Notes: generated by a model from the letters alone, not told the origin. A stretch of 64,000 nt of DNA from Candidatus Kuenenia stuttgartensis (GCA_945897965.1 CAMDHK010000001.1:16231-80230); one strand, 5' to 3'. Counted from the stretch's first letter, positions 29,865 through 45,188 are shown. Numbers and translations are program-made.

Positions 29865-29875
29865 GAGTCTAATCC

Positions 29876-30604
29876 CTAATTGCCAGCATTGCCGGTGACA
29901 TAAGAAAAGTTTCTAGAATCTTTGACGAGCTTGCCTTTTTCAAGTTGCAACACCCTCTGGGCTCGAGCCGCAGACCTTGGATCATGGGTAACCATGATGA
30001 TGGTTTTACCTAAAGTTTTCTGAAGCACCCCCATTAAATCAAGAATCTCATCCGCTGACTTTGAATCCAAATCCCCTGTTGGTTCATCCGCAACGATTAA
30101 TTCGGGATCGGTCACAATCGCCCGAGCAATACCAACACGCTGTTGTTGCCCGCCAGAAAGTTGACCAGGAATATGATTTATTCGCCCAGACAAACCAACA
30201 AGATCAAGAACATTCATAACTTGGACTTTTCGCTGAGCCCGGGTCATAGGCAAAAGAAGCAGGGGCAATTCAACATTTTCGTATGCAGTTAAAACCGGCA
30301 AGAGATGATAGAACTGAAAAACAAAACCAACATGACGGGTTCGCCATGATGCAAGCATTGATTCACTCATCTTGCTAATCAGATTTTTCCCAACGGTAAC
30401 AGTTCCACTCGTAGGCGTATCAAGTCCAGCAATGATATTCAGAAGAGTTGTTTTACCAGAACCACTAGGGCCCATAAGAGCCAAGAATTCTCCCGATTCA
30501 ACCTCGAGTGTCAATTCTTCAAGGACATCAATTTTCTCACTGCCTCTGCTAAAACTTTTGGTAAGGTTTTCGACTCGAACAACAATATTTTCAGCCATGA
30601 TCAT
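29876..30604 (-). CDS. ABC transporter ATP-binding protein (MacB/LolD-type)
   Basis: Walker [11 protein letters not shown]-loop FVFQ, signature LSGGQQQRV, Walker [13 protein letters not shown] and H-loop VTHD are all present. Confidence 0.9.
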
Positions 30605-30619
30605 CCTTTTTAAAATTCG

Positions 30620-31867
30620 TTACTTGGAAGATTGGTCTTTCATAAAAGAAACAATCACACCCATATCGGGCTTTAAATAAACGCCCTCTTCTTCAGGGGA
30701 AACTTTAATTCTAACACGAACAGGTATAGCACCTTTACCGCGATCCGCAATTGGCATTAATCTCGAAATCGTTCCCTCATAACCTTTAGGATGAACCTTC
30801 AAGAAAGGTGCATAATTTTGAAAAGCCTCTGGCATGACAAGGCATTTTTGACCTTTAAAAACCGAAGCAACATCCCGTTCTTGAATGGAAAGATCAACTT
30901 CAAGATCGGTGAGATCGGCCATATCACAAAGCGAAGCGGAAATATTAAAAGCAGCAGGGTTGATAATATTTCCTTCTTCGGATTTTTTAGTCAGAATAAC
31001 TCCGGAAACGGGAGCAACTATAACGCAATTATTAAGCCGCCATTCAGCCTTTGTCAAATCTGCAACCGCTTGGTCAACTTCAGCTTCCGCTGCTTTGAGT
31101 TTCTCTTCCCTTGGCCCCTTGACCATTAAATCAAAAGCAGATTTCAACTTACTGCACTTACGCTCCACTCCTTCAAAACTAAAAGAAGCAACATCCATTT
31201 CGCGCTGTGAGAGTGAAGCAGAGCCTGTGAGCCTTCGATTTCGAACTAAATCGGACCGTAACTGCTCAAGGTTTGAAAGGCATTCAAGATACTCTTGTTT
31301 TGATTGCTCAATTTCTTCAGGCCGATTACCATTTTTAATCTCCAGCTTTCTTTGAGTTGCAGCTTGCAAGACGGCTTTAGCCTTATCAAAATCAGCCTTG
31401 TAATCGATGGATTCAAGCACCGCAAGAACATCGCCTTTTTTCACTCTTTTACCTTCTTCAACATAAAGCTTTTCGATCATACCTGGAACTTTCGGACTAA
31501 CTTGAATCTGATGTATTGGGATAATGTAACCTTTAGCCTCAAGAACAATATTCTCCTTTCCGGGGATCGAAGGGGCTGGAGAAGATTTTTCAGAACCGGT
31601 TTTCACCGTATCAGTACCAGACGATTTGTTTATCTGGCTCGGAAGCTTTTGCAGAACTGAATCGGAACCTGTAGGCGTCATTTTATAACTCCTCCAAGTC
31701 ATCAATCCAGCAACAATCATCATGATAAAGCAAAGTCCCCAAGCGAAAATTGTCGATTTAGGCATCGATTGGGTTTCGGGAGAAGAACTAATTTTGAGCG
31801 ATTTAACTCGTTCTTCCAAACTGGCTTGGTTTTTTGAAACTGATTGGGAACTATTGAGAATGTTCAT
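30620..31867 (-). CDS. efflux transporter periplasmic adaptor subunit (HlyD/MacA family)
   Basis: N-terminal TM anchor, a lipoyl-like hairpin (VKKGDVLAVLES), a long coiled-coil segment and a beta-barrel C-terminus (APVSGVILTK). Confidence 0.85.
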   Translation of the reverse strand: MNILNSSQSVSKNQASLEERVKSLKISSSPETQSMPKSTIFAWGLCFIMMIVAGLMTWRSYKMTPTGSDSVLQKLPSQINKSSGTDTVKTGSEKSSPAPSIPGKENIVLEAKGYIIPIHQIQVSPKVPGMIEKLYVEEGKRVKKGDVLAVLESIDYKADFDKAKAVLQAATQRKLEIKNGNRPEEIEQSKQEYLECLSNLEQLRSDLVRNRRLTGSASLSQREMDVASFSFEGVERKCSKLKSAFDLMVKGPREEKLKAAEAEVDQAVADLTKAEWRLNNCVIVAPVSGVILTKKSEEGNIINPAAFNISASLCDMADLTDLEVDLSIQERDVASVFKGQKCLVMPEAFQNYAPFLKVHPKGYEGTISRLMPIADRGKGAIPVRVRIKVSPEEEGVYLKPDMGVIVSFMKDQSSK

Positions 31868-32538
31868 CGTCGAACTCCTTCAGATCTTTTCTTTTTAATG
31901 ACTTGTTTATTTAAACCAAACTTGGATTTCATGTAGGTAAATAGAATATTTAAAACCAGATCAGACATTGTTTTAGGATCAAATGCATCAGGATCAGCGG
32001 CCCGCTGCATCGATAAGCCATGCAAAATAGCCTCGATCAAGGTTGCAAGGCTACGTAAATCTAAATCATTAGTTACTGATGTAAACTCGTGTTTTAAATC
32101 AGCGGTGATCCTAGTACGCCATTCCTCATACAAAGCACTAAGCCTTAAGCGAAAGTCGGCCCTATGAGAAATTTGAGAAAGAAAAGTGTATTGAAGAGCA
32201 TGAAAGCCATCCCCCTCGACGGGCCTTGCCAACACATTTTCAATAATTCTTGAAATGCGCTCCCATCCTTCAAGTTGATCTGCAGATGGCTTTCCTGTGT
32301 TTTTATCCTGAACTTGACAATCAAGCTGCATCAAAAAAAGGAACCGATCAAAAACTGCCAGCAAAATATCTTCCTTTGCAGGAAAGTAATATGTAAGCTG
32401 ACCTCGACTCATATGCGCTTTCTTTTCAATTTCAGAAAGCGAAAAATTCTGCAACCCTTGCTGCGCAATTACACAAACAGCAGCATCAACAATCTGCTCT
32501 TTGCGAATGAAGGTTATATCAATGCGACTTTGATTCAT
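31864..32538 (-). CDS. TetR/AcrR family transcriptional regulator
   Basis: N-terminal HTH (FSLSEIEKKAHMSRGQLTYYFPAKEDIL). Its stop overlaps the adaptor-gene start in ATGA. I prefer the ATG at 32538 over the TTG at 32559. Confidence 0.85.
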   Translation of the reverse strand: MNQSRIDITFIRKEQIVDAAVCVIAQQGLQNFSLSEIEKKAHMSRGQLTYYFPAKEDILLAVFDRFLFLMQLDCQVQDKNTGKPSADQLEGWERISRIIENVLARPVEGDGFHALQYTFLSQISHRADFRLRLSALYEEWRTRITADLKHEFTSVTNDLDLRSLATLIEAILHGLSMQRAADPDAFDPKTMSDLVLNILFTYMKSKFGLNKQVIKKKRSEGVRR

Positions 32539-32560
32539 GACATAAAGCTCGAACCACAAT

Positions 32561-32576
32561 TAGACCGAACAGTCTA
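32561..32576. promoter_or_regulatory. candidate TetR operator palindrome
   Basis: TAGAC-CGAACA-GTCTA lies 23-38 nt upstream of the tetR ATG, in the 78-nt gap between the PP2C gene and the tetR-efflux operon. Confidence 0.3.
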
Positions 32577-32637
32577 TTTATAGTCCAACCAGTTTAGCCC
32601 TGTCAAGGATTCTTCCAAATTTAACCAACCACTTTGA

Positions 32638-34812
32638 TTAAGTACAACGGATAACAACCACGGTTGCATTGTCTGTTGCACCCTCAATATTTGCAAGATT
32701 GACCAACCTTCGGGCTGCCATTTGCGCAGATTGCGCCTCATTGGCAAGCATGGTTTTAAGATCTTTATTGGAAATGTGATTGGTTAAGCCATCCGAACAA
32801 ACAAACACCCAGTCCCCAGCAAGAACTCTTGCATGATAGATTCCAACTTCTACATCCGGTTGGCCGCCAATAGCTTGCTGAAGCTCATTTTTTCGAGGGT
32901 GATCCTCGGCCTCTTCGGCAGTAATGCTTCCAAGCTCAACAAGTCGATTTACCAAAGTTTGATCTCTCGTAACTTGGATTAACTCCCCTTGGGAAAGATG
33001 ATAAACCCTGCTATCGCCGACATGACCAACGACCAGATTTTTGCCATCAATGTAAGCGGCTTCAGCAGTGCAACCCATACCACGCCTTTTGCTACCTGGA
33101 GCTCTGGAAGCAGTAAAGATTTGGCGATTTGCATCTTTGAGAGCACCTTTAAACAACATCTTGCAACCTTCCACATCAAGCTCTGCGGGAGCGTGGGTTT
33201 CGCCTTTAGGCGGAGGGGTTGCTGCATCATTAGTGAAGGCCGAGCCACCAGCAAATTGAGCGAACATTTTATTCATGGTAAGGTTTTGCCTAAGAATCTG
33301 CATAGTCATCGCAGCAGCAATTTCTCCAGCTTCATAACCGCCCATGCCATCCGCCAAAAACACCAGAGCAGTATCCGTTAAATCATCCTGGCGCGATTCG
33401 GTGGCATGCATGAGAGCAAAAGCATCTTCATTGCCCGTACGAACCATACCCGTGGTTGTCCAACTAGCAATTTCAAGCCTGCACCTATCCAAGCTACGGC
33501 CGACAGAAGCCAGCGTTGCAATGAGTTCTGTAAACCCACTTTTATCATCACGGCCCGCCTCATCAGTGGGGAATCTTGCATGAATTTCGGTACGAAACGT
33601 TTTTGAAATCAACCTGCCAAACGCAGGATGAATATCAGGGAACCTAGGTATGAAAGGCTTGGGAACCCCTGGTTTTTCAAAATCATTTTCACTTAATTCA
33701 CGATGCAATATTTCCAACGAATAGATCAGCGCACCAAAGCTGTAAAGAGAAGGCCTAGGTGAGGTGCAACCCTTGCCCGACAACAACTCTGGGGGAGTAT
33801 ATAACGTTCCACGCACGGGACTTCCCGGGGGAAAAGGTAGTGGCAGAATTTCCAGAACATCCTTAAGCTTTAATTTACCCTCACTGGTCAGCACAACACT
33901 TTCAGGCCGAACAAATTCAAGAAATGCACCGACTTTGTGTAGTGATACCAATATACGAGCAAGATCTTGCAGATACGAAAATCTGATGCTGGCGTTTTGA
34001 CTTTCATCATCCCAAATTTCCCATAGGTCTTTTCCTGTAGGAATTTCAAGAACAAGATAATTTGTGGAATTTTCAGTGCCACCAAAAAGAACTTTAGGCA
34101 GCCCAACTGTATCCGCAGCATCCAAAGTCGATCTTAACCAACCCAAATTAGGCCATACCAATAGCTTTGGCATTTCACTCGTCAAATCAATTCCGCCCGT
34201 ACCAGAAAGCAACGCATCATCAAAGCTTGGTAAAAAATCATCGGACTCATCATTTTCGGGGGCGACCACTTTAGCGGTCTCGATTTGCTCACCAGCATCT
34301 GCTTGCGAATAAATGAAAACATCAACCGGGCCGCCCGAAGCTGCAATATCAACTCCAGCTTGAATTTTTACACCTGCGTATTCTCGCAATACTTTTGTGG
34401 CCTTATATCTGCCCGCAATTACTGACTCCGAACTAACTACAGCACCTAAACTATCTGCAACTATCGCAGCTCCAGCCAGATCAAGTTCAGTAAAATAATA
34501 TCCGCAATCCTGACATGAACTATTATCTTGCTCTCTTCGAGATCCACACACCTTGCATAGAATTACCACTGCTTCAAGTTTGGAATCATTCTGCGGAACT
34601 ATGACTTCAGGCAAAACCGTTGGTGAAGATTCAATCATTTCAACCTGAGAAACAACATTCAAGGCCCCATCTTCTATCTCAACAGGCAACGCCATGGGTA
34701 TAAAGCCCTCCTCCAACTGATCAGCGTTTTCAACGGGCACTGCCAGAGGAATATCCCCTTGCATCTCAGCTTGGGGTTCATGGTTGTTGGAGGAAGAAGG
34801 GTCAGTATGCAT
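32638..34812 (-). CDS. zinc-ribbon / pseudokinase / PP2C (PPM) Ser/Thr phosphatase fusion protein
   Basis: Zinc ribbon CKVCG-x12-CQDCG. The central Hanks-like domain has no G-loop or beta3 Lys, and its catalytic loop reads LEFVRPES instead of HRDLKPEN. The C-terminal PPM domain carries TGNEDAF, LADGMGGYEAGEIAA, GHVGDSRVY, CSDGLTN and ATDNATVVVI. Confidence 0.8.
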   Translation of the reverse strand: MHTDPSSSNNHEPQAEMQGDIPLAVPVENADQLEEGFIPMALPVEIEDGALNVVSQVEMIESSPTVLPEVIVPQNDSKLEAVVILCKVCGSRREQDNSSCQDCGYYFTELDLAGAAIVADSLGAVVSSESVIAGRYKATKVLREYAGVKIQAGVDIAASGGPVDVFIYSQADAGEQIETAKVVAPENDESDDFLPSFDDALLSGTGGIDLTSEMPKLLVWPNLGWLRSTLDAADTVGLPKVLFGGTENSTNYLVLEIPTGKDLWEIWDDESQNASIRFSYLQDLARILVSLHKVGAFLEFVRPESVVLTSEGKLKLKDVLEILPLPFPPGSPVRGTLYTPPELLSGKGCTSPRPSLYSFGALIYSLEILHRELSENDFEKPGVPKPFIPRFPDIHPAFGRLISKTFRTEIHARFPTDEAGRDDKSGFTELIATLASVGRSLDRCRLEIASWTTTGMVRTGNEDAFALMHATESRQDDLTDTALVFLADGMGGYEAGEIAAAMTMQILRQNLTMNKMFAQFAGGSAFTNDAATPPPKGETHAPAELDVEGCKMLFKGALKDANRQIFTASRAPGSKRRGMGCTAEAAYIDGKNLVVGHVGDSRVYHLSQGELIQVTRDQTLVNRLVELGSITAEEAEDHPRKNELQQAIGGQPDVEVGIYHARVLAGDWVFVCSDGLTNHISNKDLKTMLANEAQSAQMAARRLVNLANIEGATDNATVVVIRCT

Positions 34813-34859
34813 CGAAAATCACCTCTAAATCATTATCAAATAATTTTAAGAACATTGGC

Positions 34860-36335
34860 TTATCGAAGCCTGTTGCCACAATGAATACAACATCGACTGC
34901 CCATTCTGTTATTCTTACCACAGTAGTAACAAGGAGGGGTGGAGTCGGTTAAAGGCTCTGCGCATTTACCACAAAAAGGCTGACGAACTTTGTTCATCGA
35001 AGCACATTTTGAACAAGGTACTTCTTTGGTAACCTGTTTTTTTTCTAGATCAGCCTTGATATCCCGAGCGCTATAATAGCGTTCGTTAGGGTCTTCACTT
35101 AAATTAACTTTGATCATTTCAAAAAGCCATTGCGACTGCGGGGGAATCGGGTTGGAAGTATCTTTCAGCAAAAGATCAATTTCATGAACAGTAATGGACC
35201 CTTCTGGAACCTTACCTGTTGCCAATTGGTATAGAGTGCAAGCGAGTGCAAAAAGATCGCTACGAGGTTCAGGTTTACCTGCAATTTGCTCTAAGGGTGC
35301 ATAACCTTCTGTGTAAACTTTAGTCTTTGCAGCATGCCTGTCTTTTTGATTTTTACCCAAATCTCTGGCTGTACCAAAGTCGATCATTTTGATGGATTTT
35401 TTATCTTCAAGAAGCATTACATTTTCAGGTTTCAAATCGCGATGAACCAAAGGAGGAACTTGCGAATGCATATGCTGAAGCACATCGCAAATACTTCGAC
35501 CCCACTCGATCACACTTTCGATCGGGAACGGTGTATGGCCATTCGATTCAAGGATTTTCATCAAATCCTTACCCTTGATAAATTCAAGAACAAGATAAGC
35601 CCGCTCACCTTGTTCAATTAAATCATAAACCTTTGGCACGATGGAAACAGAATCCAATGATTTTAGAATGTCCGCTTCACGCCTGAAAAAGTTCAATCGA
35701 ATATCAAATTCGCCAGGATCTTCGCAAATCATATCCTTGATTGCTACTGGCCTGTTTGCTTCTTTAATATCCGTTGCAAGATAAACAGCACCAAAACCAC
35801 CTATCGCCAACTGCTTTTCAATTCGATATCGATTATTAATTAAATGCCCTGCAGCAAATGGAAGAACTTGACCACAACGCTGACAGTTTCGTTCCCCAGG
35901 AGGGTTTGCAGATCCGCAAACAGGATTAGTACAAATGGCAGGGCTTACCCCATCACCTTCTGCCAAGGTACTTTCAGCCTGCAAAAGGTAACCACAATCC
36001 ATACAAGAAATCGCACCAGGCAGAAGTTGAGCAGTACAAGCAGGGCAGTTAATTGGCCCAATCACTGGGGAACTTGGTTTGGAGGCAACCTGACTGGAAT
36101 CAGCTTTCGCAACTTTAGGCGTTGCAGCAACTGGCGCAACCCCGGGTGAAACAGCGGGCTTATTGACAACCGGAGCAAGTATATTTACGGAAGGCACTGA
36201 AGGAGAAGCCGGGGATGCAGAAGCTGGAACTGTAAACGGAACTTTGCAGGTTGGGCATGCAAAGGTCTTACCCACCGAATTATCGGGGAGTTGCATTTTC
36301 ATGTTACATTTCGGACAACCAAAGACTATCGGCAT
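34860..36335 (-). CDS. Hanks-type Ser/Thr protein kinase flanked by multiple zinc ribbons
   Basis: Intact kinase motifs: GGFGAVYLA, VAIKDM, HRDLKPENVML, DFGTARD, GYAPLEQ. There are three CxxC...CxxC units N-terminal (CPKC..CPTC, CPAC..CMDC, CTNPVC..CQRC) and two C-terminal (CSKC..CGKC, CYYC..CIHC). Confidence 0.9.
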   Translation of the reverse strand: MPIVFGCPKCNMKMQLPDNSVGKTFACPTCKVPFTVPASASPASPSVPSVNILAPVVNKPAVSPGVAPVAATPKVAKADSSQVASKPSSPVIGPINCPACTAQLLPGAISCMDCGYLLQAESTLAEGDGVSPAICTNPVCGSANPPGERNCQRCGQVLPFAAGHLINNRYRIEKQLAIGGFGAVYLATDIKEANRPVAIKDMICEDPGEFDIRLNFFRREADILKSLDSVSIVPKVYDLIEQGERAYLVLEFIKGKDLMKILESNGHTPFPIESVIEWGRSICDVLQHMHSQVPPLVHRDLKPENVMLLEDKKSIKMIDFGTARDLGKNQKDRHAAKTKVYTEGYAPLEQIAGKPEPRSDLFALACTLYQLATGKVPEGSITVHEIDLLLKDTSNPIPPQSQWLFEMIKVNLSEDPNERYYSARDIKADLEKKQVTKEVPCSKCASMNKVRQPFCGKCAEPLTDSTPPCYYCGKNNRMGSRCCIHCGNRLR

Positions 36336-36376
36336 AGCTTAAGACCTTAATTTACGAGCCTGTAAAAGAATATAGA

Positions 36377-37294
36377 TTACTTCTTTTTCCCGGGCTTCTC
36401 GTTGAACCTTAAAAGATAACTTCCCAAGCGAATAAGATCACCCGCCTTTAGTTCGGTGGGTTTGGTAACTTTCTGATCATTCAGAAAAGTCCCTGAAGCA
36501 CTACCTGCATCTGCAATCAAGTACCGATTTTTTTGCATTAACAATTTCGCATGAATCTTTTCAATCGAATTATCACCGAACAGGCCTATATCACAAGTTT
36601 CAGCCCGTCCAAAAAAGGTTTCGGGTTTAGAAAGAATAAGTTCTTTCCCAACTCTTTTACCCGCCTCAACACGCACCCAAGCTTCCTTTAAAACCACTTG
36701 CGCCAAACCAATAAAGAAACCAACAGCAGCGCCCAAAGCAACAAACCCAAGACCACTGGCACTAAGAAGATTTTCTCTGCCAAAAATGGCCCCAAGGCTT
36801 AATTTGAAGAACAAAAAGAATGCACCACCAAGAAAACCACCCAGAGCGCCACCCATAAGCCCATTTTTAATTTTGTTGTCATGAGGGGCAGGGGACTTTG
36901 TTGCAAGTGCAAACACCAAATCAAAAAGTCCAAGTGACAAGCCAATAAGTAGGCCAGAAATCGTCCAACCAATCAGCACAAAAAATTGAACTCCAGTAAT
37001 GCGAACAATAACCGAACCCGTAACACCTCCCAAAATGCCACCAAAAAGGCCAACAAAGCCTGCGCCCAAGGAGCGAATTACAAGCCTTTTAATGTCAGAC
37101 TTTCCCGTGCTCCAAACCGTATCAAGAACACCAACAGCAAAAGAAATAAGCGCGCCTACTAAAGCACCATCAATCACGGATTGCAATAATTCAGAAGTTA
37201 CACCTTGGGTTACCAATCTTGATACAAATGCAGCACTAAGGGCTGCATAGGCTCCAAATACCGCACAATAATAAAGAAAAAGATTAAAACTCAT
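36377..37294 (-). CDS. polytopic Gly-rich membrane protein with a C-terminal FHA domain
   Basis: About 6 hydrophobic Gly/Ala-rich spans (GAGFVGLFGGILGGVTG, GGALGGFLGGAFFLFF) are followed by an FHA core: FFGRAETCDIGL ... IHAKL ... YLIADAGSASGTFLNDQKV. Confidence 0.8.
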   Translation of the reverse strand: MSFNLFLYYCAVFGAYAALSAAFVSRLVTQGVTSELLQSVIDGALVGALISFAVGVLDTVWSTGKSDIKRLVIRSLGAGFVGLFGGILGGVTGSVIVRITGVQFFVLIGWTISGLLIGLSLGLFDLVFALATKSPAPHDNKIKNGLMGGALGGFLGGAFFLFFKLSLGAIFGRENLLSASGLGFVALGAAVGFFIGLAQVVLKEAWVRVEAGKRVGKELILSKPETFFGRAETCDIGLFGDNSIEKIHAKLLMQKNRYLIADAGSASGTFLNDQKVTKPTELKAGDLIRLGSYLLRFNEKPGKKK

Positions 37295-37308
37295 ATGGCT
37301 AAATTCCG

Positions 37309-39984
37309 TTACCTAAACAAACTACTGGAAGCTTCACGAACCTGAACTTTTGTTTGCGAACTAAACTGCCCACTCGCAACCTTTAATGAATAAACCCCTG
37401 CCTTTGAGGCACTAACCTTCCACGAAACCTGCGACATCTGGGTTGCTCTATCTACCTCAACAATTGCTTTTTCTTTTGTTTCACCCGATGCAAGGTTAAC
37501 GCCCTCAGGCAATGTGATCATAACGGGCTGCCCCTTGGTAGCATCTTTAACCAAAGCGGTAAGGGTGAAAGTTTTACCTGCGTTAGTATTACCACCGGTG
37601 GTTACAGAAAGTTTGCCGCCCGAACTACCATCGGGTTTTGAAATTTCTCCTAAACCATAGCTAAAGGCGAATTCCCTTACTTCACCAGGATTGGTGTCTC
37701 GCTCGTTCCAATAAAGAAAAGCGACGGAATCGGTAAAGCGAGAGCCATCTTTACCTTTTTTGGGTGCTAATTCAGAGGGGTCTGCGTCAAAGGAAAACTC
37801 TGTATTTCCGGGATTTTCACCCAAATAGAGTTTATACAAGGGCTCAGGCTCGCAATCGGGGAGTTGAAAGCCCTTCAAACCAAGATGGGCAATTACACCT
37901 GGAGCATCAAGATTTTGAAACTGCATTGCCTCAATAAAATCGGGCATATCTTTCTGGGTAAACTCGGTAAACTTCGTGACAAACCCATCGGTTCCTGGAA
38001 CAACAAATGGAACCCCATCTTCGCCACCAATAAATGTATCAAGCATCATTCTCAGACCAATTTTATGACTGTTTTTACCTTTGTTTTCAACTGTATAACG
38101 AATAACACACGTATCCAAATTACCTGATTGACTACCGGGGACAATTTGCACAAATTGTGAAACCTTGATCCTTTCACCCGCCAATAGATAATCACAAGAA
38201 ACACGCCAAACTCGCCTTTTGGAGTCTTCTTTGTCTTCTGTAACTCGAACCTCTTTCATTGCATGAGCAAACAAAAAATCACGACCATCAATTTTAATTC
38301 GGGTGTTATTTGAATCACCCTCCTGATCATAGGTAAGTCTAAGATTTTTGGAAGCATCTTTGGGGTCCTTTTTATCAGCAGCAAAAAGGCCGAAACGATA
38401 ATTCCTAGATTTTGCTTTATGGCTAAAGTCCAGCATCAATTCAGCTTTTTTATCAAGGTCGAACGAATAACCAAAAGAATTTTGTGCACTCTCATTTTTC
38501 GCTCCACCTGATCCCCCTTCAGTCTTACCACCCACCCCAACACCGACTGCATCCGCTATCAACAATATAACCATCAAAGAAACCAAACCCGCAAAGGGCA
38601 CAAAATGAATCAAGGGGATCGAAGAATTAGGCCCTTTGGTATTCTTTCTTAATTTTGGGTCAACCTTGATGGTGCTATCAGTTTCAGGAATATCGGTTGG
38701 GGGCGGGGCATTAGGAACAAAAACAGGCTGCTTAGTAAAAACCAACTCAGGTAATGGTTCGGACCTTGGAGCCACATACTTTCCAGAAACCTGAACATTG
38801 ACCTGAACCAGAAACTTCTGATTACCATTAGAAGTGACTGCAATTTTTGAAACCAACAACTCACCGGGTCTATCAGGAATCTGAGGAATAACAAATCCAA
38901 GAATTGCACTGCTACCCGTCAACTTGGGGTCTTTCGCAGTAATCCATGATTGATCTGCAAACCCATGAGCGAAAACAGGCCTCTTATCTTCGGTGCCAAC
39001 AGTCAATTCAAATGCGAGTTCCTGCCCAGGAGCACCGTTAAGATTGACCACCGTTTGATTAATAAAAGTTTTGGGCGGTGGTGTAAGACCCAACGCTTCA
39101 AAAAACTGCTGAATGGCTCCTACTCCTGATGCGCTTGGCCCTTGCACAGGATAAGACCAGCCATTGCTTTCGTACCACTTGGCAACAGAGCCGTTTTCAA
39201 AAAGAATGGCAGCTTCTTTAGCATTGGCTTTAGCTTTAGAAGCTATTTGTCTTGGGTTGAGAGCCCCAGAAAGCGGCATAAGTTGGAATGGGGTGACAGG
39301 CACTTCGGCCCGAATTAACACCACCGAACTTCCACCAGAAGAGTCAATTTTTAATTTGGCAACAAGCGGCTTATCCGATGCGCGTAATTTTTCAGGAACA
39401 ATCCGAAGAGGGACAGTTAATTCACCAGTGGTTTGAAAATTCTTAACCGAAGCATTACCAGTTTCCCCGATGGCAAGCCAATTGCTATCCGAAGTGATTG
39501 AACCAAAAAGAAGGCGCATACCCCCGTTTTCAATCGTAATTTTAATTTCCCGCTTGGCTGTTCTGCTTAGAACCCCAAGATTGATTTCCTGAGAAGAAAG
39601 ATTAAGCCTTGCTTCAGATAACACAGAAGAAGGAAACTTCCCTAGGAGTTCATCTAAACCACGAGAGGAGTCAGGAAACTTCGCAGCTTCCTTTGCAGCC
39701 ATCGACAAATCGATACGACCAATGCTTGCAAGAAAAGATTCAAGGAACCCTTGTTTCAACATGTCAGCAGCGGGCTTTGATTCTTCATGACAGGCAATGG
39801 CAAGGTCGTCAAAATTAAGGCAGGAACGACCACTCATAAAAACGAATGGACTTGGGAATCTAAGGCTATTAATTGCGAGAGGGCCCGTTCCAGCATCAGC
39901 ACCGCCTAGAACAAAGCCATCAAAATAGCAGTAAACAGCTTCTTGGGGATTAACTCTGGAACACTTGGGGCAAGTCATCATCAT
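37309..39984 (-). CDS. 891-aa single-pass membrane protein of unknown function with an N-terminal zinc-ribbon-like motif
   Basis: N-terminus MMMTCPKCSRVNPQEAVYCYFDG. Two beta-sandwich-looking segments follow (INLGVL..REIKITIENGGMRLLFGSITSDSNWLAI; VVNLNGAPGQELAFELTV ... FLVQVNVQVSG). One TM span lies near residues 456-486 (IPLIHFVPFAGLVSLMVILLIADAVGVGVGG). The ~400-aa beta-rich C-terminal domain is one I do not recognise. Confidence 0.75.
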   Translation of the reverse strand: MMMTCPKCSRVNPQEAVYCYFDGFVLGGADAGTGPLAINSLRFPSPFVFMSGRSCLNFDDLAIACHEESKPAADMLKQGFLESFLASIGRIDLSMAAKEAAKFPDSSRGLDELLGKFPSSVLSEARLNLSSQEINLGVLSRTAKREIKITIENGGMRLLFGSITSDSNWLAIGETGNASVKNFQTTGELTVPLRIVPEKLRASDKPLVAKLKIDSSGGSSVVLIRAEVPVTPFQLMPLSGALNPRQIASKAKANAKEAAILFENGSVAKWYESNGWSYPVQGPSASGVGAIQQFFEALGLTPPPKTFINQTVVNLNGAPGQELAFELTVGTEDKRPVFAHGFADQSWITAKDPKLTGSSAILGFVIPQIPDRPGELLVSKIAVTSNGNQKFLVQVNVQVSGKYVAPRSEPLPELVFTKQPVFVPNAPPPTDIPETDSTIKVDPKLRKNTKGPNSSIPLIHFVPFAGLVSLMVILLIADAVGVGVGGKTEGGSGGAKNESAQNSFGYSFDLDKKAELMLDFSHKAKSRNYRFGLFAADKKDPKDASKNLRLTYDQEGDSNNTRIKIDGRDFLFAHAMKEVRVTEDKEDSKRRVWRVSCDYLLAGERIKVSQFVQIVPGSQSGNLDTCVIRYTVENKGKNSHKIGLRMMLDTFIGGEDGVPFVVPGTDGFVTKFTEFTQKDMPDFIEAMQFQNLDAPGVIAHLGLKGFQLPDCEPEPLYKLYLGENPGNTEFSFDADPSELAPKKGKDGSRFTDSVAFLYWNERDTNPGEVREFAFSYGLGEISKPDGSSGGKLSVTTGGNTNAGKTFTLTALVKDATKGQPVMITLPEGVNLASGETKEKAIVEVDRATQMSQVSWKVSASKAGVYSLKVASGQFSSQTKVQVREASSSLFR

Positions 39985-40020
39985 GATTACTATTACTCAC
40001 ACAATCCAAGTTAGAGATTC

Positions 40021-40056
40021 AAAAAAAAAGCGCAGCCGTTATTTATCGAACTGCGC
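40021..40056 (-). terminator. weak intrinsic terminator/attenuator inside the signalling cluster
   Basis: On the minus strand the stem GCGCAG/CTGCGC (15-nt loop) is followed by T9. It lies 28 nt after the stop of the zinc-ribbon-FHA gene and 36 nt before the start of the 891-aa gene. Confidence 0.35.
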
Positions 40057-40083
40057 CAAGACATCAACTTTGAAGGCGCACTA

Positions 40084-40818
40084 TTAAAGCATAACCTTCA
40101 TTTGAATATTACCAATTTGCACCATATCGTTAGCCTTGAGTGGCATCTTTTGTCCGGGGTAAATCTTATTTCGGTTTAAGAAAGTACCGTTTGAACTATT
40201 AAGATCTTCGATGGTTATTTTGTTATCTTCGAACTCAATAACAGCGTGCTGCCTACTTGCCCAAACCCGTTCTGGGTTTTCTTGATCTTCAAGGTCGATA
40301 TCAACAGGCTTGTCGTCTGCTCTACCGATAAAGTTGAGGCCACCAAGAATTGGAAATTCAACCTTGGGTTTCTGGCCACGCACCACATACAATCGAGGAT
40401 TCGCAGAATCCGACACAAAGTAAGGGTCATCGGAAACAGGCGGGGCGACTGGGGCCGCAGCAATTGGGGCAGGGGCAACTTCTGCAGCAATTGGGGTCGG
40501 TATCGCTTCAGCAATTGGGGGCGGGGCAACTTCTTCAGCAATAGGCTCTGGCATCGCTTCAGCAACAGGCAAGGGTGGCATCTCTTCTATAGCCATCTCA
40601 GCCATTGGGAAAGAAGGAACTTCTTCGGCGATCTCAATTGCATCCGCCATGGCAAAAGGGATAGCTTCCTCAATTACTTCAGCAACAGGAAGAGGCGGGG
40701 CCTCAGCAGCAACAGGAACTGCAGGAGCAGAATCCACCCCTGTGAGATCAGACTTACACTGCTCACAAAAAAGGGCACCGTCTTCATTTTCAAAATGGCA
40801 AAAAGGACATACGATCAT
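40084..40818 (-). CDS. zinc-ribbon / Pro-Ala-Glu repeat linker / FHA domain protein
   Basis: N-terminus CPFC-x10-CEQC. A ~100-aa P-[IVMF]-A-[EA] repeat region follows. The C-terminal FHA core reads NFIGRADDKPVDIDL ... ASRQHAVIEF ... ITIEDLNSSNGTFLNRNKI. Confidence 0.85.
   Translation of the reverse strand: MIVCPFCHFENEDGALFCEQCKSDLTGVDSAPAVPVAAEAPPLPVAEVIEEAIPFAMADAIEIAEEVPSFPMAEMAIEEMPPLPVAEAMPEPIAEEVAPPPIAEAIPTPIAAEVAPAPIAAAPVAPPVSDDPYFVSDSANPRLYVVRGQKPKVEFPILGGLNFIGRADDKPVDIDLEDQENPERVWASRQHAVIEFEDNKITIEDLNSSNGTFLNRNKIYPGQKMPLKANDMVQIGNIQMKVML
40435..40728. repeat. degenerate ~30-nt coding tandem repeat (P-x-A-E decapeptides)
   Basis: The GCTTCAGCAA(T/C)(T/A)GG(G/C) type unit recurs about every 30 nt. 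It encodes PLPVAEVIEE / IPFAMADAIE / PSFPMAEMAIEE / PLPVAEAMPE / PIAEEVAPP / PIAEAIPT / PIAAEVAPA / PIAAAPVAP. It also generates long spurious ORFs in other frames. Confidence 0.8.
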
Positions 40819-40910
40819 CGAAATACCTCTCTTAAACTCTACTTAAAACTGACTACTAAATTCCTATTCCAAAGCGGCATCTTGCCTGTTAATAACGCCA
40901 GATAAACAAA

Positions 40911-42209
40911 TTACTCATCAGCAGCACGGGCAGCATCATCCACTGCCAACTGAGTCTTTTTCGAAACTTTACCGCCTTGATTAATTTCAGCAAGCACCTG
41001 CTTGGCAAGCATTGTTTTCTTTACCGCCCTAGCACCCATGACTTCGCCTTTTTTCTCAATACTTTGAGCAACTCGAACTGCTTCTTGAGTATTACCAGTG
41101 GAAATGGCATTTTGCAGGTTCTTGTTTAATTCGAAAATCTGAACTTCATCAATATGCTTTGCAACTTCAGCGTTAATATAACCATTACCTGCGGCGGTAT
41201 ATGACATTTCAATCGGAATCAAACCACTAGATTCTTTGACACCTGACCCTGTATCAAAAGTTATTTCAACATCAAGAAGCTTAAACTTTCCATCAGGCCG
41301 TTTAGGAAGGCTAAGGTCAAGAATGTAACGGGAAGTCTTATCTTTTTCCAAGGTGCCAAGTTGTGCAACTGAATGCCGATCTTCAACTTCCACCAAAGAC
41401 AAATCTTTAATTTCAGGCACAACCATGCGAACTCGCCTGATTTTAATATCTTTCATGAGACGAAAATGAATCTGCACATCCCGGAAACCTACCGCAGCAA
41501 GGCTTTGAAACTCGCTAGCAAAAACTTTCTGAGCAGAATCAACCTGATTAACATCAATGTAATGCCATTTGCCATTTGATAGCGACGCAAGATCTTTGAT
41601 AAGGCCTGAATTCCACTCGGTACCAACACCAATTACACTAAAATTGATTTTCTTTTCAGCAGCAGCTTTAGCGTATTCTTTGCACAACTGCTCGCCTGAT
41701 GTTTCGCCATCGGTAAGAACAACCAAATGCGAGATATTTCCGGTGCCCGTGCTTTTCTGAAGTTCAGAAAGGGCTAATTCGATACCTTGATCCATCGAGG
41801 TGCCGCCCGCATCCACGTTGAACATGTCAATCCGCATGATGACATCAATAATTTTATCTTTTTGAGAAACCAAGGTGGTAGGCAATACTAGTTCAGCATT
41901 ATTTGCAAATGCAACAATGGCAATCGAATCATTTGGCCTTAAGAAATTCAAAGCAGAACAAGCGGCTTCTTGAACTCTGCTAATACGGCTTTTGCCTGTA
42001 CCATCTTCTTCATACATTGAACCTGAAACATCCAAAACCATGGCCATGTTGATGCCGATTGAAGCCCCGCCGCCACCAACTGCTGGAATCAATTTCAATA
42101 GCGCATAACTAGCAATTGATTCACCAGCAACTGCGATGCTATTCCGGTGCATCATTCTTTCAACATGAATTTTAGCTTTGGAGATTGCTTGGCTCATTGA
42201 TAACTTCAA
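40911..42209 (-). CDS. von Willebrand factor type A (vWA) domain protein
   Basis: MIDAS motif MVLDVSGSM, plus GGTSMDQG and VVLTDGETSG. A ~200-aa C-terminal extension follows. It is the first gene of the cluster. Confidence 0.85.
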   Translation of the reverse strand: MKLSMSQAISKAKIHVERMMHRNSIAVAGESIASYALLKLIPAVGGGGASIGINMAMVLDVSGSMYEEDGTGKSRISRVQEAACSALNFLRPNDSIAIVAFANNAELVLPTTLVSQKDKIIDVIMRIDMFNVDAGGTSMDQGIELALSELQKSTGTGNISHLVVLTDGETSGEQLCKEYAKAAAEKKINFSVIGVGTEWNSGLIKDLASLSNGKWHYIDVNQVDSAQKVFASEFQSLAAVGFRDVQIHFRLMKDIKIRRVRMVVPEIKDLSLVEVEDRHSVAQLGTLEKDKTSRYILDLSLPKRPDGKFKLLDVEITFDTGSGVKESSGLIPIEMSYTAAGNGYINAEVAKHIDEVQIFELNKNLQNAISTGNTQEAVRVAQSIEKKGEVMGARAVKKTMLAKQVLAEINQGGKVSKKTQLAVDDAARAADE

Positions 42210-42495
42210 CCTAATTAAATTCTGTTAAAACCACAATTAATGCATTAGAATTATCTTATGCCAGCGCTTTAACCAATACAACAAAGAAACTTCTTCATTT
42301 CTTCAGTTTTTTAAGAGCGGAATGCACTTATCATCATCACCCGCAAGCAAGACTTAAATCACTACCTATCAACCAGCATTTCCCTAACACACATTAATCA
42401 AAAACCTTATCTCATATACAGCGAATTTGAATTTGCAATTTAATGGCTCTCCAGATGACAGAGACCGGCACTAAACACGAATCAGCCCTAATTAT

Positions 42496-43644
42496 TTAAC
42501 TTTGGCTAAGCGCAACGCCATCAATAATCACACGATTAATCCGGAACGGTACATCCTTGTTGGAATCAAACAAGATCAAATTCGCCATGCTGCCTGCCTC
42601 AATTTTAATCTCTGGCAACTGAAGCAACCTTCTGGGCGCATTGGTTGCCATTTCGATTGCCTGACTTCTTGAAACAACCCCAAGAGAAATTAAATGAGCC
42701 ACACAATCATCAGTGAAAGAGCCTGAGCCCGCCAGAAAAGGTGTTCCGGGCACCACAACTTTTCCGCTTGATAATATTTCAATTTCCTGATCCCACATCG
42801 AATACTTTCCAGGAGGAAGCCCGGCAAGCCCACTGGCATCGCATGTAATTATTTGTTTTTCGAATGGCTTGACACGGACTATCGTTTTTATCAGCGCCTC
42901 GGGTAGGTGATGCCCATCAGTAATAATACTTGCAGACAAAGAATCACAACCGAGCTGCTCCCAAAAATAATTTTCATGCCTAGGCAACATGGCATGAGAT
43001 CCATTCCCTAAATGCGTGGAAAGCCGCGCACCCGCTCCAATTGCCTCACGAATAATCATGGGGCTTGCTGCAGTATGTCCAATGGAAACGACGACACCTT
43101 CAAGGTTCATTTTCTTTATAAAATCAATTGCACCCGGAAGCTCTGGCGCAAGTGTAAGTAATTTTATTCGATTGCCAGAGGCCTCCTGATACTCTTTAAA
43201 TTCGTCATAAATTGGATTGCGAACATGTTGTTTCTGATGGGCGCCCCTCGGACCATCTTCATTACTTATATAAGGCCCTTCCAGATGAAAGCAGGGCATG
43301 GCACGGGCAATCACAGGATCACTTTCACATGCTTTTCGAAGGGTACTAAAGCCATGAATCAGAACAGGATGGGAGTTTGTTATAATTGTTGGGCAAATTG
43401 CATCGATACCGTGCCGTTTGCAAACCGAAAGAACCTTTCTGATTCCACTTTCATCTAGGTTGATGTCACTAAAAGCCACACCCATAGCACCATTGATTTG
43501 CAAATCAAAAAACGCAGGAGCAATATATGAGCCCTGGTAATCAGGGACAAAGTTTCCTGCTTGTTCCACAGAAACAATTTTGCCATTGTTGCAACGTACA
43601 TCAACCATCTGTTCGGTTTGATAATGCTTTGCCCGAAAAATCAT
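42496..43644 (-). CDS. nagA: N-acetylglucosamine-6-phosphate deacetylase-like amidohydrolase
   Basis: Metal-dependent amidohydrolase pattern: FDLQINGAMGVAF, SIGHTAAS, THLGNGSH, ITDGHH. Its start overlaps the upstream kinase stop (ATGA). Confidence 0.75.
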   Translation of the reverse strand: MIFRAKHYQTEQMVDVRCNNGKIVSVEQAGNFVPDYQGSYIAPAFFDLQINGAMGVAFSDINLDESGIRKVLSVCKRHGIDAICPTIITNSHPVLIHGFSTLRKACESDPVIARAMPCFHLEGPYISNEDGPRGAHQKQHVRNPIYDEFKEYQEASGNRIKLLTLAPELPGAIDFIKKMNLEGVVVSIGHTAASPMIIREAIGAGARLSTHLGNGSHAMLPRHENYFWEQLGCDSLSASIITDGHHLPEALIKTIVRVKPFEKQIITCDASGLAGLPPGKYSMWDQEIEILSSGKVVVPGTPFLAGSGSFTDDCVAHLISLGVVSRSQAIEMATNAPRRLLQLPEIKIEAGSMANLILFDSNKDVPFRINRVIIDGVALSQS

Positions 43645-45188
43645 TTTTTCCCATCTCCGCCCGTTTGGTATGAGGGTGAAGTTTCATTTTCTTTTTTTGA
43701 GGATGCAAAGATGGCCAAAGCAACGATGCAACCGATTAAAGTAGCGAGGGCACCCAACCCGATTCCTGTTCCCAGAAATAGCAATTCATTTCGAGTGAAT
43801 CGAGATAAGTTAAAAGCTCCAACCGAGGCTGGCTTTGATTTTCTAATGGATTTTTTATACACGGGCTCGGGATTATCAAAAGCAAAATCATCAGCTTCTT
43901 TGGGCATACTAGATACAAATGTAACTGAATAATCGTCCTCAATACCGGGATCGCTTTCAGAATCTTGGCCATCGCTATTATCTGAGGGAGGGTCATAGAG
44001 TATTCCCTCTTCTTTTTTATTTTTAATCTTTTCTTTGAGGGCAGTTTTCGAAGTTTCAAGCCAAGTGAGATATTTTTTAAGCTTGTTTTCGGAATCGGGA
44101 GCAGAAGGTGAGACAAAAGGCCCCGAATTCAAAAAAATCGCAAGTGCTTGAGCACATTTTTCAGGCGTCTGGTAGCGATCTGATGGCTCCTTCGCAAGCA
44201 TTGTATTAATGATCTTATTCAATCCCTCAGGAACCTTGGGATTAAATTGACTAGCAGGCTTTGGAGTTTCAGTTTGATGCCTGATAATTTGGTTAATAAT
44301 ATTGGTATCTGGGAAGGGGGGTTGACCTGTCAACAAGTGATACAGAACACACCCTAGTCCGTAAATATCTGCTCGAATATCAATATTTCGAGCATCCCGG
44401 GCCTGCTCGGGTGCCATGTAATCAGGAGTGCCCAAAATCGCCCCTTCATCGGTCAGGTTCAATGCGGTCACAACCTGATGCAGGGGTTCTTTATTCTTGG
44501 TGAGTTTACCCAAACCCATATCAAGAATTTTTAAAGTTTTATCCATCACCTTAGAAGTAAGAATTGGGCCTGCAAGCATCATATTTGCTGGCTTTAAATC
44601 TCGATGCACAAGCCCATGTTGATAAATACAATCCAGCCCCCGAAGCGCCTGATAAACAATATGGCAGGCTTCATCAGGAGGAACTTTACCACTCCGCTTT
44701 AAAAATTGGTCTAGTGTTTCACCCTCAAGGTAATCCATAACCATGTAATGAACACCGTTGTAAACTCCCGTTTCAAAAGTCCGAACAATATTTGGGTGAA
44801 TCAATTCCATGTTCATCTGAGCTTCACGGTGGAAGCGCATCAGGAAATTTTTTTCACGCGACTTAGATGGAGGCAGCACTTTTAAAGCAACAATTTGGCC
44901 TGTTTCATGCTCTGCTTTGTAAACACCGCCCATGCGGCCCGTTCCAAGCTTTTCCGAAATCTTGTAACTGTTTATAAAATATCCATCTGCATGGCCTTTG
45001 ATTAAAAGCTTAGCTTGGTATTCGGTCACGTACTTTCGGCTCACAAGCCAGTTAGCAAACTTTATCACATCGGATTGTGCAGTTTTCGATTCTTCTTTCC
45101 ATCGATCCAATACGATTTTCGCCTCATCAAGCTTCATCAGCTTGCTTCTCAAGATCAACCCATAAACATTATTAACAGTTAATTCCAT
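43641..45188 (-). CDS. Hanks-type Ser/Thr protein kinase with a C-terminal TM anchor
   Basis: Motifs: GTGRMGGVYKA, VALKVL, HRDLKPANMML, DMGLGK (a DFG variant), GTPDYMAPEQ. A C-terminal hydrophobic span (LLFLGTGIGLGALATLIGCIVALAIFA) is present. Confidence 0.9.
   Translation of the reverse strand: MELTVNNVYGLILRSKLMKLDEAKIVLDRWKEESKTAQSDVIKFANWLVSRKYVTEYQAKLLIKGHADGYFINSYKISEKLGTGRMGGVYKAEHETGQIVALKVLPPSKSREKNFLMRFHREAQMNMELIHPNIVRTFETGVYNGVHYMVMDYLEGETLDQFLKRSGKVPPDEACHIVYQALRGLDCIYQHGLVHRDLKPANMMLAGPILTSKVMDKTLKILDMGLGKLTKNKEPLHQVVTALNLTDEGAILGTPDYMAPEQARDARNIDIRADIYGLGCVLYHLLTGQPPFPDTNIINQIIRHQTETPKPASQFNPKVPEGLNKIINTMLAKEPSDRYQTPEKCAQALAIFLNSGPFVSPSAPDSENKLKKYLTWLETSKTALKEKIKNKKEEGILYDPPSDNSDGQDSESDPGIEDDYSVTFVSSMPKEADDFAFDNPEPVYKKSIRKSKPASVGAFNLSRFTRNELLFLGTGIGLGALATLIGCIVALAIFASSKKENETSPSYQTGGDGKK

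Follow-up and report, generated by a model that had tools for sequence, protein, structure and literature searches.

What do six adjacent genes for a kinase, a phosphatase, two FHA proteins, a vWA protein and a large protein of no named family accomplish together? The question is raised by positions 32638-42209 of a 64,000-nucleotide (nt) stretch of DNA filed under Candidatus Kuenenia stuttgartensis (GCA_945897965.1 CAMDHK010000001.1:16231-80230). We refer to the whole stretch as the window. Its lineage is freshwater Gemmataceae (Planctomycetota), and the nearest loci, in metagenome-assembled genomes (MAGs), have 92-96% protein identity. The original prediction was of a candidate uncharacterised membrane phospho-signalling system. 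Listing the open reading frames (ORFs) of the window returned the six genes at the coordinates claimed, all on the minus strand. In order, they encode a vWA protein (gene 1), a zinc ribbon-linker-FHA protein (gene 2), an 891-amino acid (aa) protein that we call the orphan (gene 3), a polytopic transmembrane (TM) protein with an FHA domain (gene 4; TM-FHA), a Hanks-type Ser/Thr kinase (gene 5) and a pseudokinase fused to a PP2C phosphatase (gene 6). The intervening gaps are 92, 99, 14, 41 and 47 nt, as expected from the predicted range of 14-99 nt. Pfam and NCBIfam scans of the six proteins essentially confirmed the proposed domain composition. We lean, modestly, towards the interpretation that the cluster encodes a split TM Ser/Thr phospho-signalling (receptor-kinase) pathway of Gemmatales. 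Synteny, the kinase, the PP2C, the pseudokinase, an intact MIDAS (metal ion-dependent adhesion site) and a TM receptor all support the prediction.

The orphan (37309-39984, minus strand) is central to this interpretation and was assessed from its homologues and from AlphaFold2 (AF2) models. It has no Pfam, NCBIfam or PADLOC match, and a sequence profile of the whole protein found nothing in the PDB. There are 496 homologues, and those with names are from Gemmataceae or Planctomycetota. The full-length model has a predicted local distance difference test score (pLDDT) of 79, with a poorly modelled N-terminus. Briefly, residues 1-400 (38785-39984) form a cytoplasmic module. A zinc-ribbon-like motif had been proposed here; the motif exists, but its actual form is Cx2C-x10-Cx2D, invariant in 20 homologues. 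Residues 58-399 are modelled as two immunoglobulin-like (Ig) domains, each preceded by helices: a bundle before the first and a further helical segment before the other. BACON, HYDIN-type Ig and DUF5717_N models make weak matches to these Ig domains in orphan homologues. A disordered, Pro/Thr-rich linker (residues 404-457) then leads to the single TM helix (residues 458-478; 38551-38613), also as predicted. The ectodomain (residues 500-891; 37312-38487) consists of a beta-supersandwich and a C-terminal Ig domain. Foldseek with the full-length model was uninformative, returning generic Ig arrays, HYDIN and titin, and the ectodomain was modelled separately, with confidence (pLDDT 88.6, predicted template modelling score 0.89). 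This model matched galactose-mutarotase-like beta-supersandwiches, with E-values of 5e-7 to 3e-4 and template modelling scores of 0.3-0.5 that indicate a fold class and not a ligand. These relatives include polysaccharide lyases, GH94/GH65 phosphorylase N-domains, aldose 1-epimerases, the YidC periplasmic domain (P1) and PnsB2. Hence, the ectodomain appears to belong to a carbohydrate-associated fold class, which is a fold-level assignment and not a ligand identification. The external domain of about 400 aa, listed as unrecognised in the original prediction, is now recognisable by its fold.

It is also a member of a large unnamed family. We searched a profile of the ectodomain (A2) against 1.84 billion cluster representatives. 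Matches were found in 2,592 50%-identity clusters at E <= 1e-3, and in 706 at E <= 1e-30. No Pfam model covers them. In the A2 alignment, where the window protein is the first sequence, identity is 34-76% and 43 columns are invariant. Family members share a supersandwich of ~280 aa with a C-terminal Ig domain, and the invariant motifs RFG, DP, SNNT and LDTxIGxxDGVPF. The domain sits outside the membrane, after a TM helix or signal peptide. The window orphan has all the features that define the family in the profile made here. Its cytoplasmic module accompanies the ectodomain in 50 of the best 150 matches. Elsewhere, the ectodomain is joined through one TM helix to quite different partners. Six examples have a Ser/Thr kinase (P0263, P0276, P0310, P0349, P0358, P0400) and five an extracytoplasmic function (ECF) sigma factor (P0293, P0321, P0334, P0337, P0338). 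Zinc ribbon-TM-ectodomain, ectodomain-PASTA and lipoprotein or secreted forms also occur. Because it is fused to kinases and ECF sigma factors in this way, the ectodomain is best read as a sensor module. Fusion to two unrelated transducer classes is the strongest evidence that the orphan, predicted originally just as a TM protein, is a receptor. Since the ectodomain occurs fused to cytoplasmic transducers, the cluster resembles a receptor kinase split into separate polypeptides.

Two further observations concern this family. Fusions to HEAT repeats were seen in P0463, P0468, P0475, P0483 and P0487. A distant relative (27.5% identity, E 7e-17) is a 1,192-aa protein encoded by Bacillus cereus plasmid pJ2_2 (NZ_AP022929.1; L081 6671-10249), in which an LCAT/lipase-like alpha/beta-hydrolase domain comes after the ectodomain; its gene is situated amid insertion sequence elements.

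Is the cluster a real unit? A pattern and tblastn scan, with one genome per species, identified 203 loci with an orphan relative. The best 80 were kept, and the six window proteins were compared with the ORFs of these loci; the following counts refer to this sample. All 80 are Gemmatales-like MAGs, a few of which have implausible taxon labels. Synteny, which the original prediction had set as a check, was readily found. The complete order vWA / ZnFHA / orphan / TM-FHA / kinase / PP2C occurs in ~22 loci. Around 15 further clusters are truncated by contig ends yet consistent with this order, which is conserved down to ~35-40% orphan identity. The cluster is not a chance arrangement, because dozens of genomes that were assembled independently share its gene order, and its retention across Gemmatales loci identifies it as really conserved. 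Smaller forms exist. The vWA, ZnFHA and orphan genes occur by themselves in ~12 loci, and ~17 have the orphan/TM-FHA pair only, in either gene order. The orphan is alone in five. Two or three of these locus types co-occur in several genomes, and a further orphan/TM-FHA pair, with ~30% identity, is present in the lineage of the window itself (L056, L058, L061, L064). In most loci a TM-FHA gene adjoins the orphan homologue, on one side or the other. This distribution of locus types identifies the orphan and TM-FHA genes as the evolutionary core pair.

An extra upstream pair is present in 16 loci bearing the vWA, ZnFHA and orphan genes, mostly full clusters. It encodes a TM-FHA paralogue and a protein of ~600 aa, and it lies upstream of the vWA gene, at L016 4737-7509 and at the equivalent place in the 15 others. 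The ~600-aa protein has the orphan cytoplasmic module, ending in ~4 TM helices and not in one TM helix and an ectodomain. The window cluster, which has no such pair, is otherwise the most complete form in which the core pair is found. A side observation is that the contig with P0188 encodes a solo TM-FHA paralogue only. The MAGs of L005, L037, L041, L045, L052, L063, L072 and L074 go under the names "Candidatus Kuenenia sp." or "uncultured Alcaligenaceae bacterium", probably through taxonomic mislabelling.

The kinase and the phosphatase provide the writing and erasing activities. Gene 5 (34860-36335, minus strand; 491 aa) encodes a kinase domain at residues 170-421 (35073-35828; Pkinase 5e-38). 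The motifs GxGxxG (LAIGGFGAVY), VAIK, HRDLKPEN and DFG are intact. Five Cys4 ribbons flank the domain, three N-terminal and two C-terminal (residues 441-458 and 469-486). Four are of the CxxC...CxxC type and one is Cx4C...CxxC. The protein matches DZR (2e-10) and the NCBIfam model 4Cys_prefix_kin. Gene 6 (32638-34812, minus strand; 724 aa) encodes a zinc ribbon (residues 86-103; 34504-34557), a pseudokinase (~residues 125-440; 33493-34440) and an Stp1-type PP2C domain with metal-binding motifs present (residues 452-721; 32650-33459; Stp1_PP2C 3e-60). A profile of the gene 6 family matches PP2C structures (7e-42) and kinase C-lobes (6e-12). In the pseudokinase, HRD is changed to LEF, the catalytic-loop Lys to Arg and Asn to Ser, while neither the VAIK Lys nor the Gly loop remains. 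It retains the DFG Asp and APE. By their intact motifs, the gene 5 kinase and the gene 6 PP2C are predicted to be active. Neither protein has a TM segment and both are expected to be soluble. Alignment of gene 6 with gene 5 by hhalign (probability 97.7%) spans the zinc ribbon as well as the kinase, and so identifies the pseudokinase as a paralogue of the neighbouring kinase. The five-ribbon kinase and the pseudokinase-PP2C protein are thus as first described. A keyword search of a recent review of bacterial pseudokinases returned no pseudokinase-PP2C fusion from the text searched (PMC12599244). The N-terminus of the gene 6 protein also has two IP[LM]A[LV]PVE motifs (residues 20-50). They resemble repeats in the gene 2 linker, and P26 and P39 are invariant in 11 homologues; the two proteins may share a short linear motif.

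Genes 1 and 2 encode a vWA protein and an FHA protein for which there is a characterised parallel in archaea. The gene 1 ORF (40911-42209, minus strand; 432 aa; Pfam VWA 1.8e-16) probably starts at ATG 42197, because homologues align from residue 5. The vWA domain (residues 54-230; 41520-42050) has the intact MIDAS that had been predicted, DxSxS...T...D, readable as VLDVSGSM / GGTSMD / LTDGETS. It is followed by ~200 aa, first strand-rich and then helical (40914-41507). The family alignment (A4) has 75% column identity, and T399, S416 and T419 in the C-terminal tail are invariant. Hydropathy gave no TM segment, as expected for a cytoplasmic protein. Among other vWA domains, PDB matches include ArnB (8s05_A, 2.7e-6, profile) and its paralogue vWA2 (ArnE; 5a8j_A). 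Three of 11 family members match the ArnB_C model below threshold, on the C-terminal helical region (best E 0.0012). The vWA-TerF-like model is matched by 9/11, with a best E-value of 4.5e-7. The window protein itself scores 22.8 bits on that model, against a curated cut-off of 29.4, and matches no PADLOC model.

Gene 2 (40084-40818, minus strand; 244 aa) encodes the predicted combination of zinc ribbon, P-x-A-E linker and FHA domain (DZR 2e-4, Pfam FHA 1.6e-16). The ribbon is at residues 4-21 (40756-40809) and the canonical FHA domain at residues 145-242 (40093-40386). Between them, the linker is rich in Pro, Ala and Glu, with P-[VI]-A-E repeats, and varies in length among homologues. DNA tandem repeats lie at 40442-40565, inside the gene. 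Invariant in 12 homologues are C4, C7, C18, C21, GR, SRQH and NGT. The protein has no TM segment. Its best PDB match is ArnA (5a8i_A, 1.8e-7), then 8s05_C. With its N-terminal Cys4, linker and canonical FHA domain, it has the ArnA-type features, and its architecture is of the ArnA/FraH type. Two observations concern the repeats. In L053 (9082-9837), the FHA protein linker is a near-perfect (AHPVAE)n array. In the window, a 219-aa antisense ORF (40246-40905, plus strand), rich in G, W, R and N, mirrors the P-x-A-E repeat DNA; it is almost certainly a repeat artefact and not a gene.

Gene 4 (36377-37294, minus strand; 305 aa) starts 14 nt after the orphan gene. Hydropathy identified ~6 TM segments in the Gly-rich residues 1-205 (36680-37294). 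A C-terminal cytoplasmic FHA domain follows (residues 209-299; 36398-36670), as in the predicted polytopic FHA protein. This region matches Pfam FHA (8e-16) and, equally well, Yop-YscD_cpl (1.7e-15). Throughout the family (alignment A5) the domain is non-canonical, with Glu replacing the SxxH Ser and Ser or Gly replacing the NG Asn. It retains GR, His, Thr and Asn. Two phosphothreonine readers had been proposed for the cluster. The gene 2 FHA domain is canonical and can stand as one, but that of gene 4 lacks two canonical phosphate-contacting residues.

How might these proteins work together? The orphan would be the receptor, with its periplasmic supersandwich and Ig ectodomain binding an envelope cue. 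The fold and the PASTA fusion point to a glycan or cell-wall fragment as the most likely class of ligand. The cytoplasmic module of the orphan, with its zinc motif, alternating helical and Ig segments and no enzymatic domain, could form a membrane scaffold in a putative complex with the six-TM FHA protein. The soluble five-ribbon kinase and its pseudokinase-PP2C paralogue would be recruited to this scaffold, and pairing between kinase and pseudokinase may couple writing to erasing. Likely phosphorylation targets are the Pro/Thr-rich linker of the orphan and the conserved Thr/Ser residues in the helical C-terminal tail of the vWA protein. The final step is modelled on Sulfolobus. There, the ArnA zinc finger docks on the junction between the beta-sandwich and helical domains of ArnB, and phosphorylation of the helical domain by a kinase then recruits FHA (PMC6509490, PMC12852372). 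By analogy, the gene 2 zinc ribbon would dock constitutively and its canonical FHA domain would bind the phosphorylated vWA protein, giving a loose-to-tight switch. The ArnB authors proposed a Glu ligand for the ArnB MIDAS site; we infer that Glu residues of the P-x-A-E repeats are candidate MIDAS ligands here. Docking of ArnA on ArnB (PMC12852372) is also a structural precedent for the earlier idea that zinc ribbons could nucleate a common assembly.

Several observations weigh against this scheme. No output domain or downstream output gene was found in the cluster. The ~12 loci with the vWA, ZnFHA and orphan genes have no adjacent kinase or PP2C gene; hence, the kinase may not be dedicated to the orphan receptor. 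The role of gene 4 as a phospho-reader is doubtful because two residues that canonically contact phosphothreonine are replaced. Likeness to ArnB beyond the vWA domain is not established, because the window protein scores below the Pfam threshold for ArnB_C (E 0.089, residues 353-386, 13.1 bits where 26.3 are required) and no PDB sequence matches the C-terminal half of the gene 1 protein even at E 10. Similarly, the moderate structural matches of the ectodomain specify a fold class and not a ligand. For co-transcription of the six genes, spacing is the sole indication. The 286-nt, AT-rich intergenic region 5' of the vWA gene (42210-42495, minus strand) is the only long gap, and so its position marks it as the likely promoter region of the cluster. 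Consensus promoter and terminator scans of 31800-42800 gave nothing above shuffled-sequence expectation.

A bolder version of the split receptor-kinase reading can be framed, which we hold only tentatively and think unlikely in full. The orphan/TM-FHA pair would be an unrecognised class of bacterial receptor, in which the glycan-binding-like ectodomain passes its signal through a non-enzymatic Ig/helical scaffold. Zinc ribbons of four proteins would act as tags that dock on an ArnB-like vWA hub, assembling the kinase, the pseudokinase-phosphatase and the FHA adaptor at the membrane. The Gly-zipper TM-FHA protein would then be a phospho-gated effector. Such a system, if real, would connect the archaeal ArnAB switch with bacterial envelope surveillance and give a function to a domain family of ~2,600 clusters.

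The alternative that survives best, though still improbable, is that the cluster is a checkpoint in envelope biogenesis. The orphan/TM-FHA pair would be part of a membrane machine, or regulate one, and the TM-FHA protein would be the regulated effector, not a scaffold. Assembly of the machine, for peptidoglycan or polysaccharide synthesis or export, or for growth of budding cells, would be gated by the kinase, PP2C and FHA proteins. Models for such gating are the MviN pseudokinase, which recruits FhaA when phosphorylated by PknB, and control of the type VI secretion system (T6SS) by PpkA/PppA/Fha1. The parts of the cluster do parallel MviN/FhaA: a pseudokinase, FHA and an extracytoplasmic sugar-binding-like domain (PMC12599244). 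The gene 4 FHA domain, which scores as well on the model of the type III secretion system (T3SS) YscD cytoplasmic domain, is non-canonical in the manner of structural FHA domains. The ectodomain fold is common to the YidC periplasmic domain and glycan-processing enzymes, and it occurs beside PASTA. One paralogous pair lies beside a 2xFHA-ABC transporter (L036). Directly downstream of the cluster is a MacAB-like efflux operon (27131-32559, minus strand) for a TetR regulator, an HlyD-type adaptor, an ABC ATPase and two FtsX/MacB-type permeases. However, neither the window flanks nor related loci show conservation, beside the cluster, of any gene for a synthase, flippase, secretin, T6SS, T3SS or cell division. 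Outside the window lineage and the distant loci L023 and L071, the efflux operon is unlinked. The presence of several paralogous copies in a genome suits sensors better than a single housekeeping machine, and the joining of the ectodomain to kinases and to ECF sigma factors points to signalling.

Less probable again is a sensor of conflict or threat, of the TerY-P or Esr kind. The ectodomain would detect a phage or antagonist, and the kinase cascade would activate the Gly-zipper membrane protein as an effector that perturbs membranes, or induce a defence programme. In its favour, the vWA, PP2C and zinc-ribbon kinase have the composition of TerY-P, and TerY-P-like modules can act against phage (PMC11090510, citing Gao 2020). 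Gly-zipper TM proteins are among the effectors of conflict systems (PMC11090510). Most gene 1 family members also match vWA-TerF-like. Esr systems of Actinomycetales likewise combine a surface sensor, vWA, kinase, phosphatase and FHA output, in many cases together with a zinc finger (PMC13622651). Paralogous sensor pairs, multiple and diverged, also occur within single genomes. Yet PADLOC matches the kinase only, and generically; the vWA, PP2C, FHA and orphan proteins match none of its models. The window flanks and related loci lack a MoxR ATPase and any nuclease, restriction or Ter gene. Chromosomal position and flanks are constant from 96% to ~58% orphan identity. The GC content of the cluster is normal (0.43-0.45 against 0.37-0.47 across the window), with no anomaly in base composition. 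No phage homologue was found by tblastn of the orphan, and plasmid homologues are ectodomain-only matches on three B. cereus plasmids. The ectodomain is also conserved and not hypervariable, as its 43 invariant columns attest.

That the six are adjacent yet functionally independent signalling genes, in a genome rich in kinase and FHA genes, is very improbable: Gemmataceae do encode ~100-150 Ser/Thr kinases (PMC11032199), the window has two more (43641-45188 and 11776-13182) and sub-clusters without kinase and PP2C genes exist, but ~37 widely diverged loci retain the order and orientation of all six genes, the gaps are short, zinc ribbons are common to four of the six proteins and the pseudokinase is paralogous to the kinase next to it.

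Where does the cluster end? Genes beyond its boundaries are unrelated and of housekeeping type, such as malic enzyme, DUF1501, FeoB and peptidases. In the window, the flanks are an amidohydrolase, a kinase, the TetR-HlyD-ABC-FtsX operon, malic enzyme and DUF1501. We considered the efflux operon, which starts 78 nt downstream of the PP2C gene, as a member and rejected it, given its restricted linkage. Directly upstream, genes for a 515-aa Ser/Thr kinase (43641-45188) and an amidohydrolase overlap by 4 nt (42496-45188, minus strand). They are syntenic to ~58% orphan identity; more distant genomes have the extra pair of TM-FHA and orphan N-terminal module genes instead. These two genes were likewise rejected as members, being conserved in the near lineage only and 286 nt away. 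In L008, they are separated from the cluster by an inserted gene for a 1,079-aa kinase. Paralogous orphan/TM-FHA pairs have inconsistent neighbours, including a WD40-HEAT protein (L066, L073), the 2xFHA-ABC transporter (L036), BON and Uma2, and no common output gene emerged beside them. The WD40 and HEAT proteins, of ~1,000 aa, are encoded directly downstream of the paralogous TM-FHA/orphan pairs (L066 9995-12886, L073 12765-15851). Further from the cluster are two genes of separate interest. One, for a transglutaminase-like protein with a TPR domain (45239-46060, plus strand), is outside the conserved cluster. The other (46437-47309, minus strand) is methylene-tetrahydromethanopterin dehydrogenase-like (Mpt_N, 3.5e-28) and fits the planctomycetal C1-transfer pathway that uses tetrahydromethanopterin (H4MPT).

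The value of the locus is practical. Ser/Thr-kinase repertoires of Gemmataceae are among the largest in bacteria and almost none of these kinases has a known input. The cluster offers a defined, conserved and testable unit of sensor, scaffold, writer, eraser and reader. Since the ectodomain module is widespread, finding its ligand would annotate thousands of proteins, among them receptor kinases and membrane-tethered ECF sigma factors. The data also suggest that the vWA-FHA phospho-switch of Sulfolobus is an ancient module shared with bacteria, and bacterial genetics could help to find its output. For specialists in bacterial Ser/Thr signalling, the result introduces no new signalling principle; it is useful yet unsurprising.

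We finally compared the cluster with known systems. The original prediction recognised no characterised system of this composition. This did not hold, as ArnA/ArnB, TerY-P and an operon of Deinococcus all resemble parts of it. The closest parallel for genes 1 and 2 is ArnA-ArnB of Sulfolobus acidocaldarius, which acts with kinases ArnC and ArnD. In both cases, adjacent genes encode a Cys4 zinc ribbon-linker-canonical FHA protein and a cytoplasmic vWA protein, and regulation involves Hanks-type kinases. As in ArnB, the MIDAS of the gene 1 protein is intact, and a strand-rich segment is followed by a helical region with conserved Thr/Ser at the C-terminus. ArnA is the best solved match of gene 2, and the weak ArnB_C matches are correctly placed in gene 1. 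Unlike the Arn network, the cluster is bacterial and not crenarchaeal, and has no archaellum. Outside the vWA and FHA cores, similarity does not reach curated thresholds. The Arn eraser is a PP2A, whereas that of the cluster is a PP2C fused to a pseudokinase, and the Arn network has no counterpart to the receptor and TM-FHA membrane proteins.

The TerY-P triad was described by Anantharaman, Iyer and Aravind in 2012. The combination of vWA, PP2C and kinase, a triad mentioned in the original prediction, is the TerY-P composition by the definition in PMC11090510: one cluster encodes a vWA protein and a PP2C together with a Ser/Thr kinase that carries C-terminal zinc ribbons. A vWA-STPK-FHA-PP2C operon of Deinococcus (DRA0331-0334), which includes a FraH-like FHA protein, is under study (bioRxiv 10.64898/2026.01.23.701218). 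In contrast to TerY-P, no Ter, restriction or CoCoNuT genes are near the cluster in the window flanks or related loci, and PADLOC models, including those for candidate defence systems, match its kinase only. The DRA0332 kinase has TM helices, whereas the cluster kinase is soluble. Compared with both systems, the PP2C carries a pseudokinase and not KI-FHA, and two membrane proteins are added.

Esr of Actinomycetales (PMC13622651, a 2026 preprint) has in common with the cluster a surface sensor, vWA, a paired kinase and phosphatase, and an FHA protein to which a zinc finger is often attached. In neither case is the output encoded as a classical transcription factor. The cluster differs in having no MoxR ATPase, beta-propeller filament sensor or Esx secretion linkage; no AAA+/MoxR gene was found in or beside it in the window, L016 or L056. 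Its sensor is an integral membrane protein with a supersandwich ectodomain, and the window's transglutaminase-like gene (45239-46060), which differs in type, is outside the conserved cluster. Actinobacterial cell-wall control, by MviN(MurJ)-FhaA-PknB or FhaA/FhaB-PstP-PknA/B (PMC12599244), also unites a Hanks-type kinase and a PP2C eraser with an FHA adaptor that depends on phosphorylation, a pseudokinase that serves as scaffold, and a membrane protein whose extracytoplasmic domain is of a carbohydrate-binding type. However, the pseudokinase of the cluster is fused to the phosphatase and not to a membrane protein, and the phylum differs. There are no MurJ, RodA, PbpA or PASTA-kinase genes in the window, and the cluster kinase has no TM or PASTA segment. 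Both FHA proteins have FhaB/FipA (FhaB_Rv0019c) as best NCBIfam match, at 47-55 bits against a cut-off of 125. The TagH/Fha1-type model TIGR03354 gives ~30 bits against a cut-off of 120 and, as regards the PpkA-PppA-Fha1 parallel, no T6SS genes are in the window flanks or related loci.

The PknG pathway of Actinobacteria comprises a kinase with a Cys4 metal-binding domain and TPR, an FHA-domain target (GarA/OdhI) and a GlnH-type solute-binding protein. In PknG-GlnX-GlnH, a soluble kinase is fed by a separate membrane and extracytoplasmic sensor (PMC11032199). The cluster has the same split-receptor logic, with a soluble Cys4 kinase, a separate membrane input and an FHA protein. The components, however, are unrelated. 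The cluster has no GlnH-type solute-binding protein, TPR or GarA-type metabolic target, and sensor and transducer are one polypeptide. It adds vWA, PP2C and pseudokinase proteins. We conclude that the cluster is a lineage-specific elaboration of known kinase/phosphatase/vWA/FHA modules and not a wholly new kind of system. Its known parts are the TerY-P triad, the ArnAB pair, FHA proteins of the FraH/ArnA type and the split-receptor logic of PknG-GlnX-GlnH. New are the Gemmatales-specific receptor/TM-FHA pair, the pseudokinase-PP2C fusion and the recognition of a large unnamed family of sensor domains.

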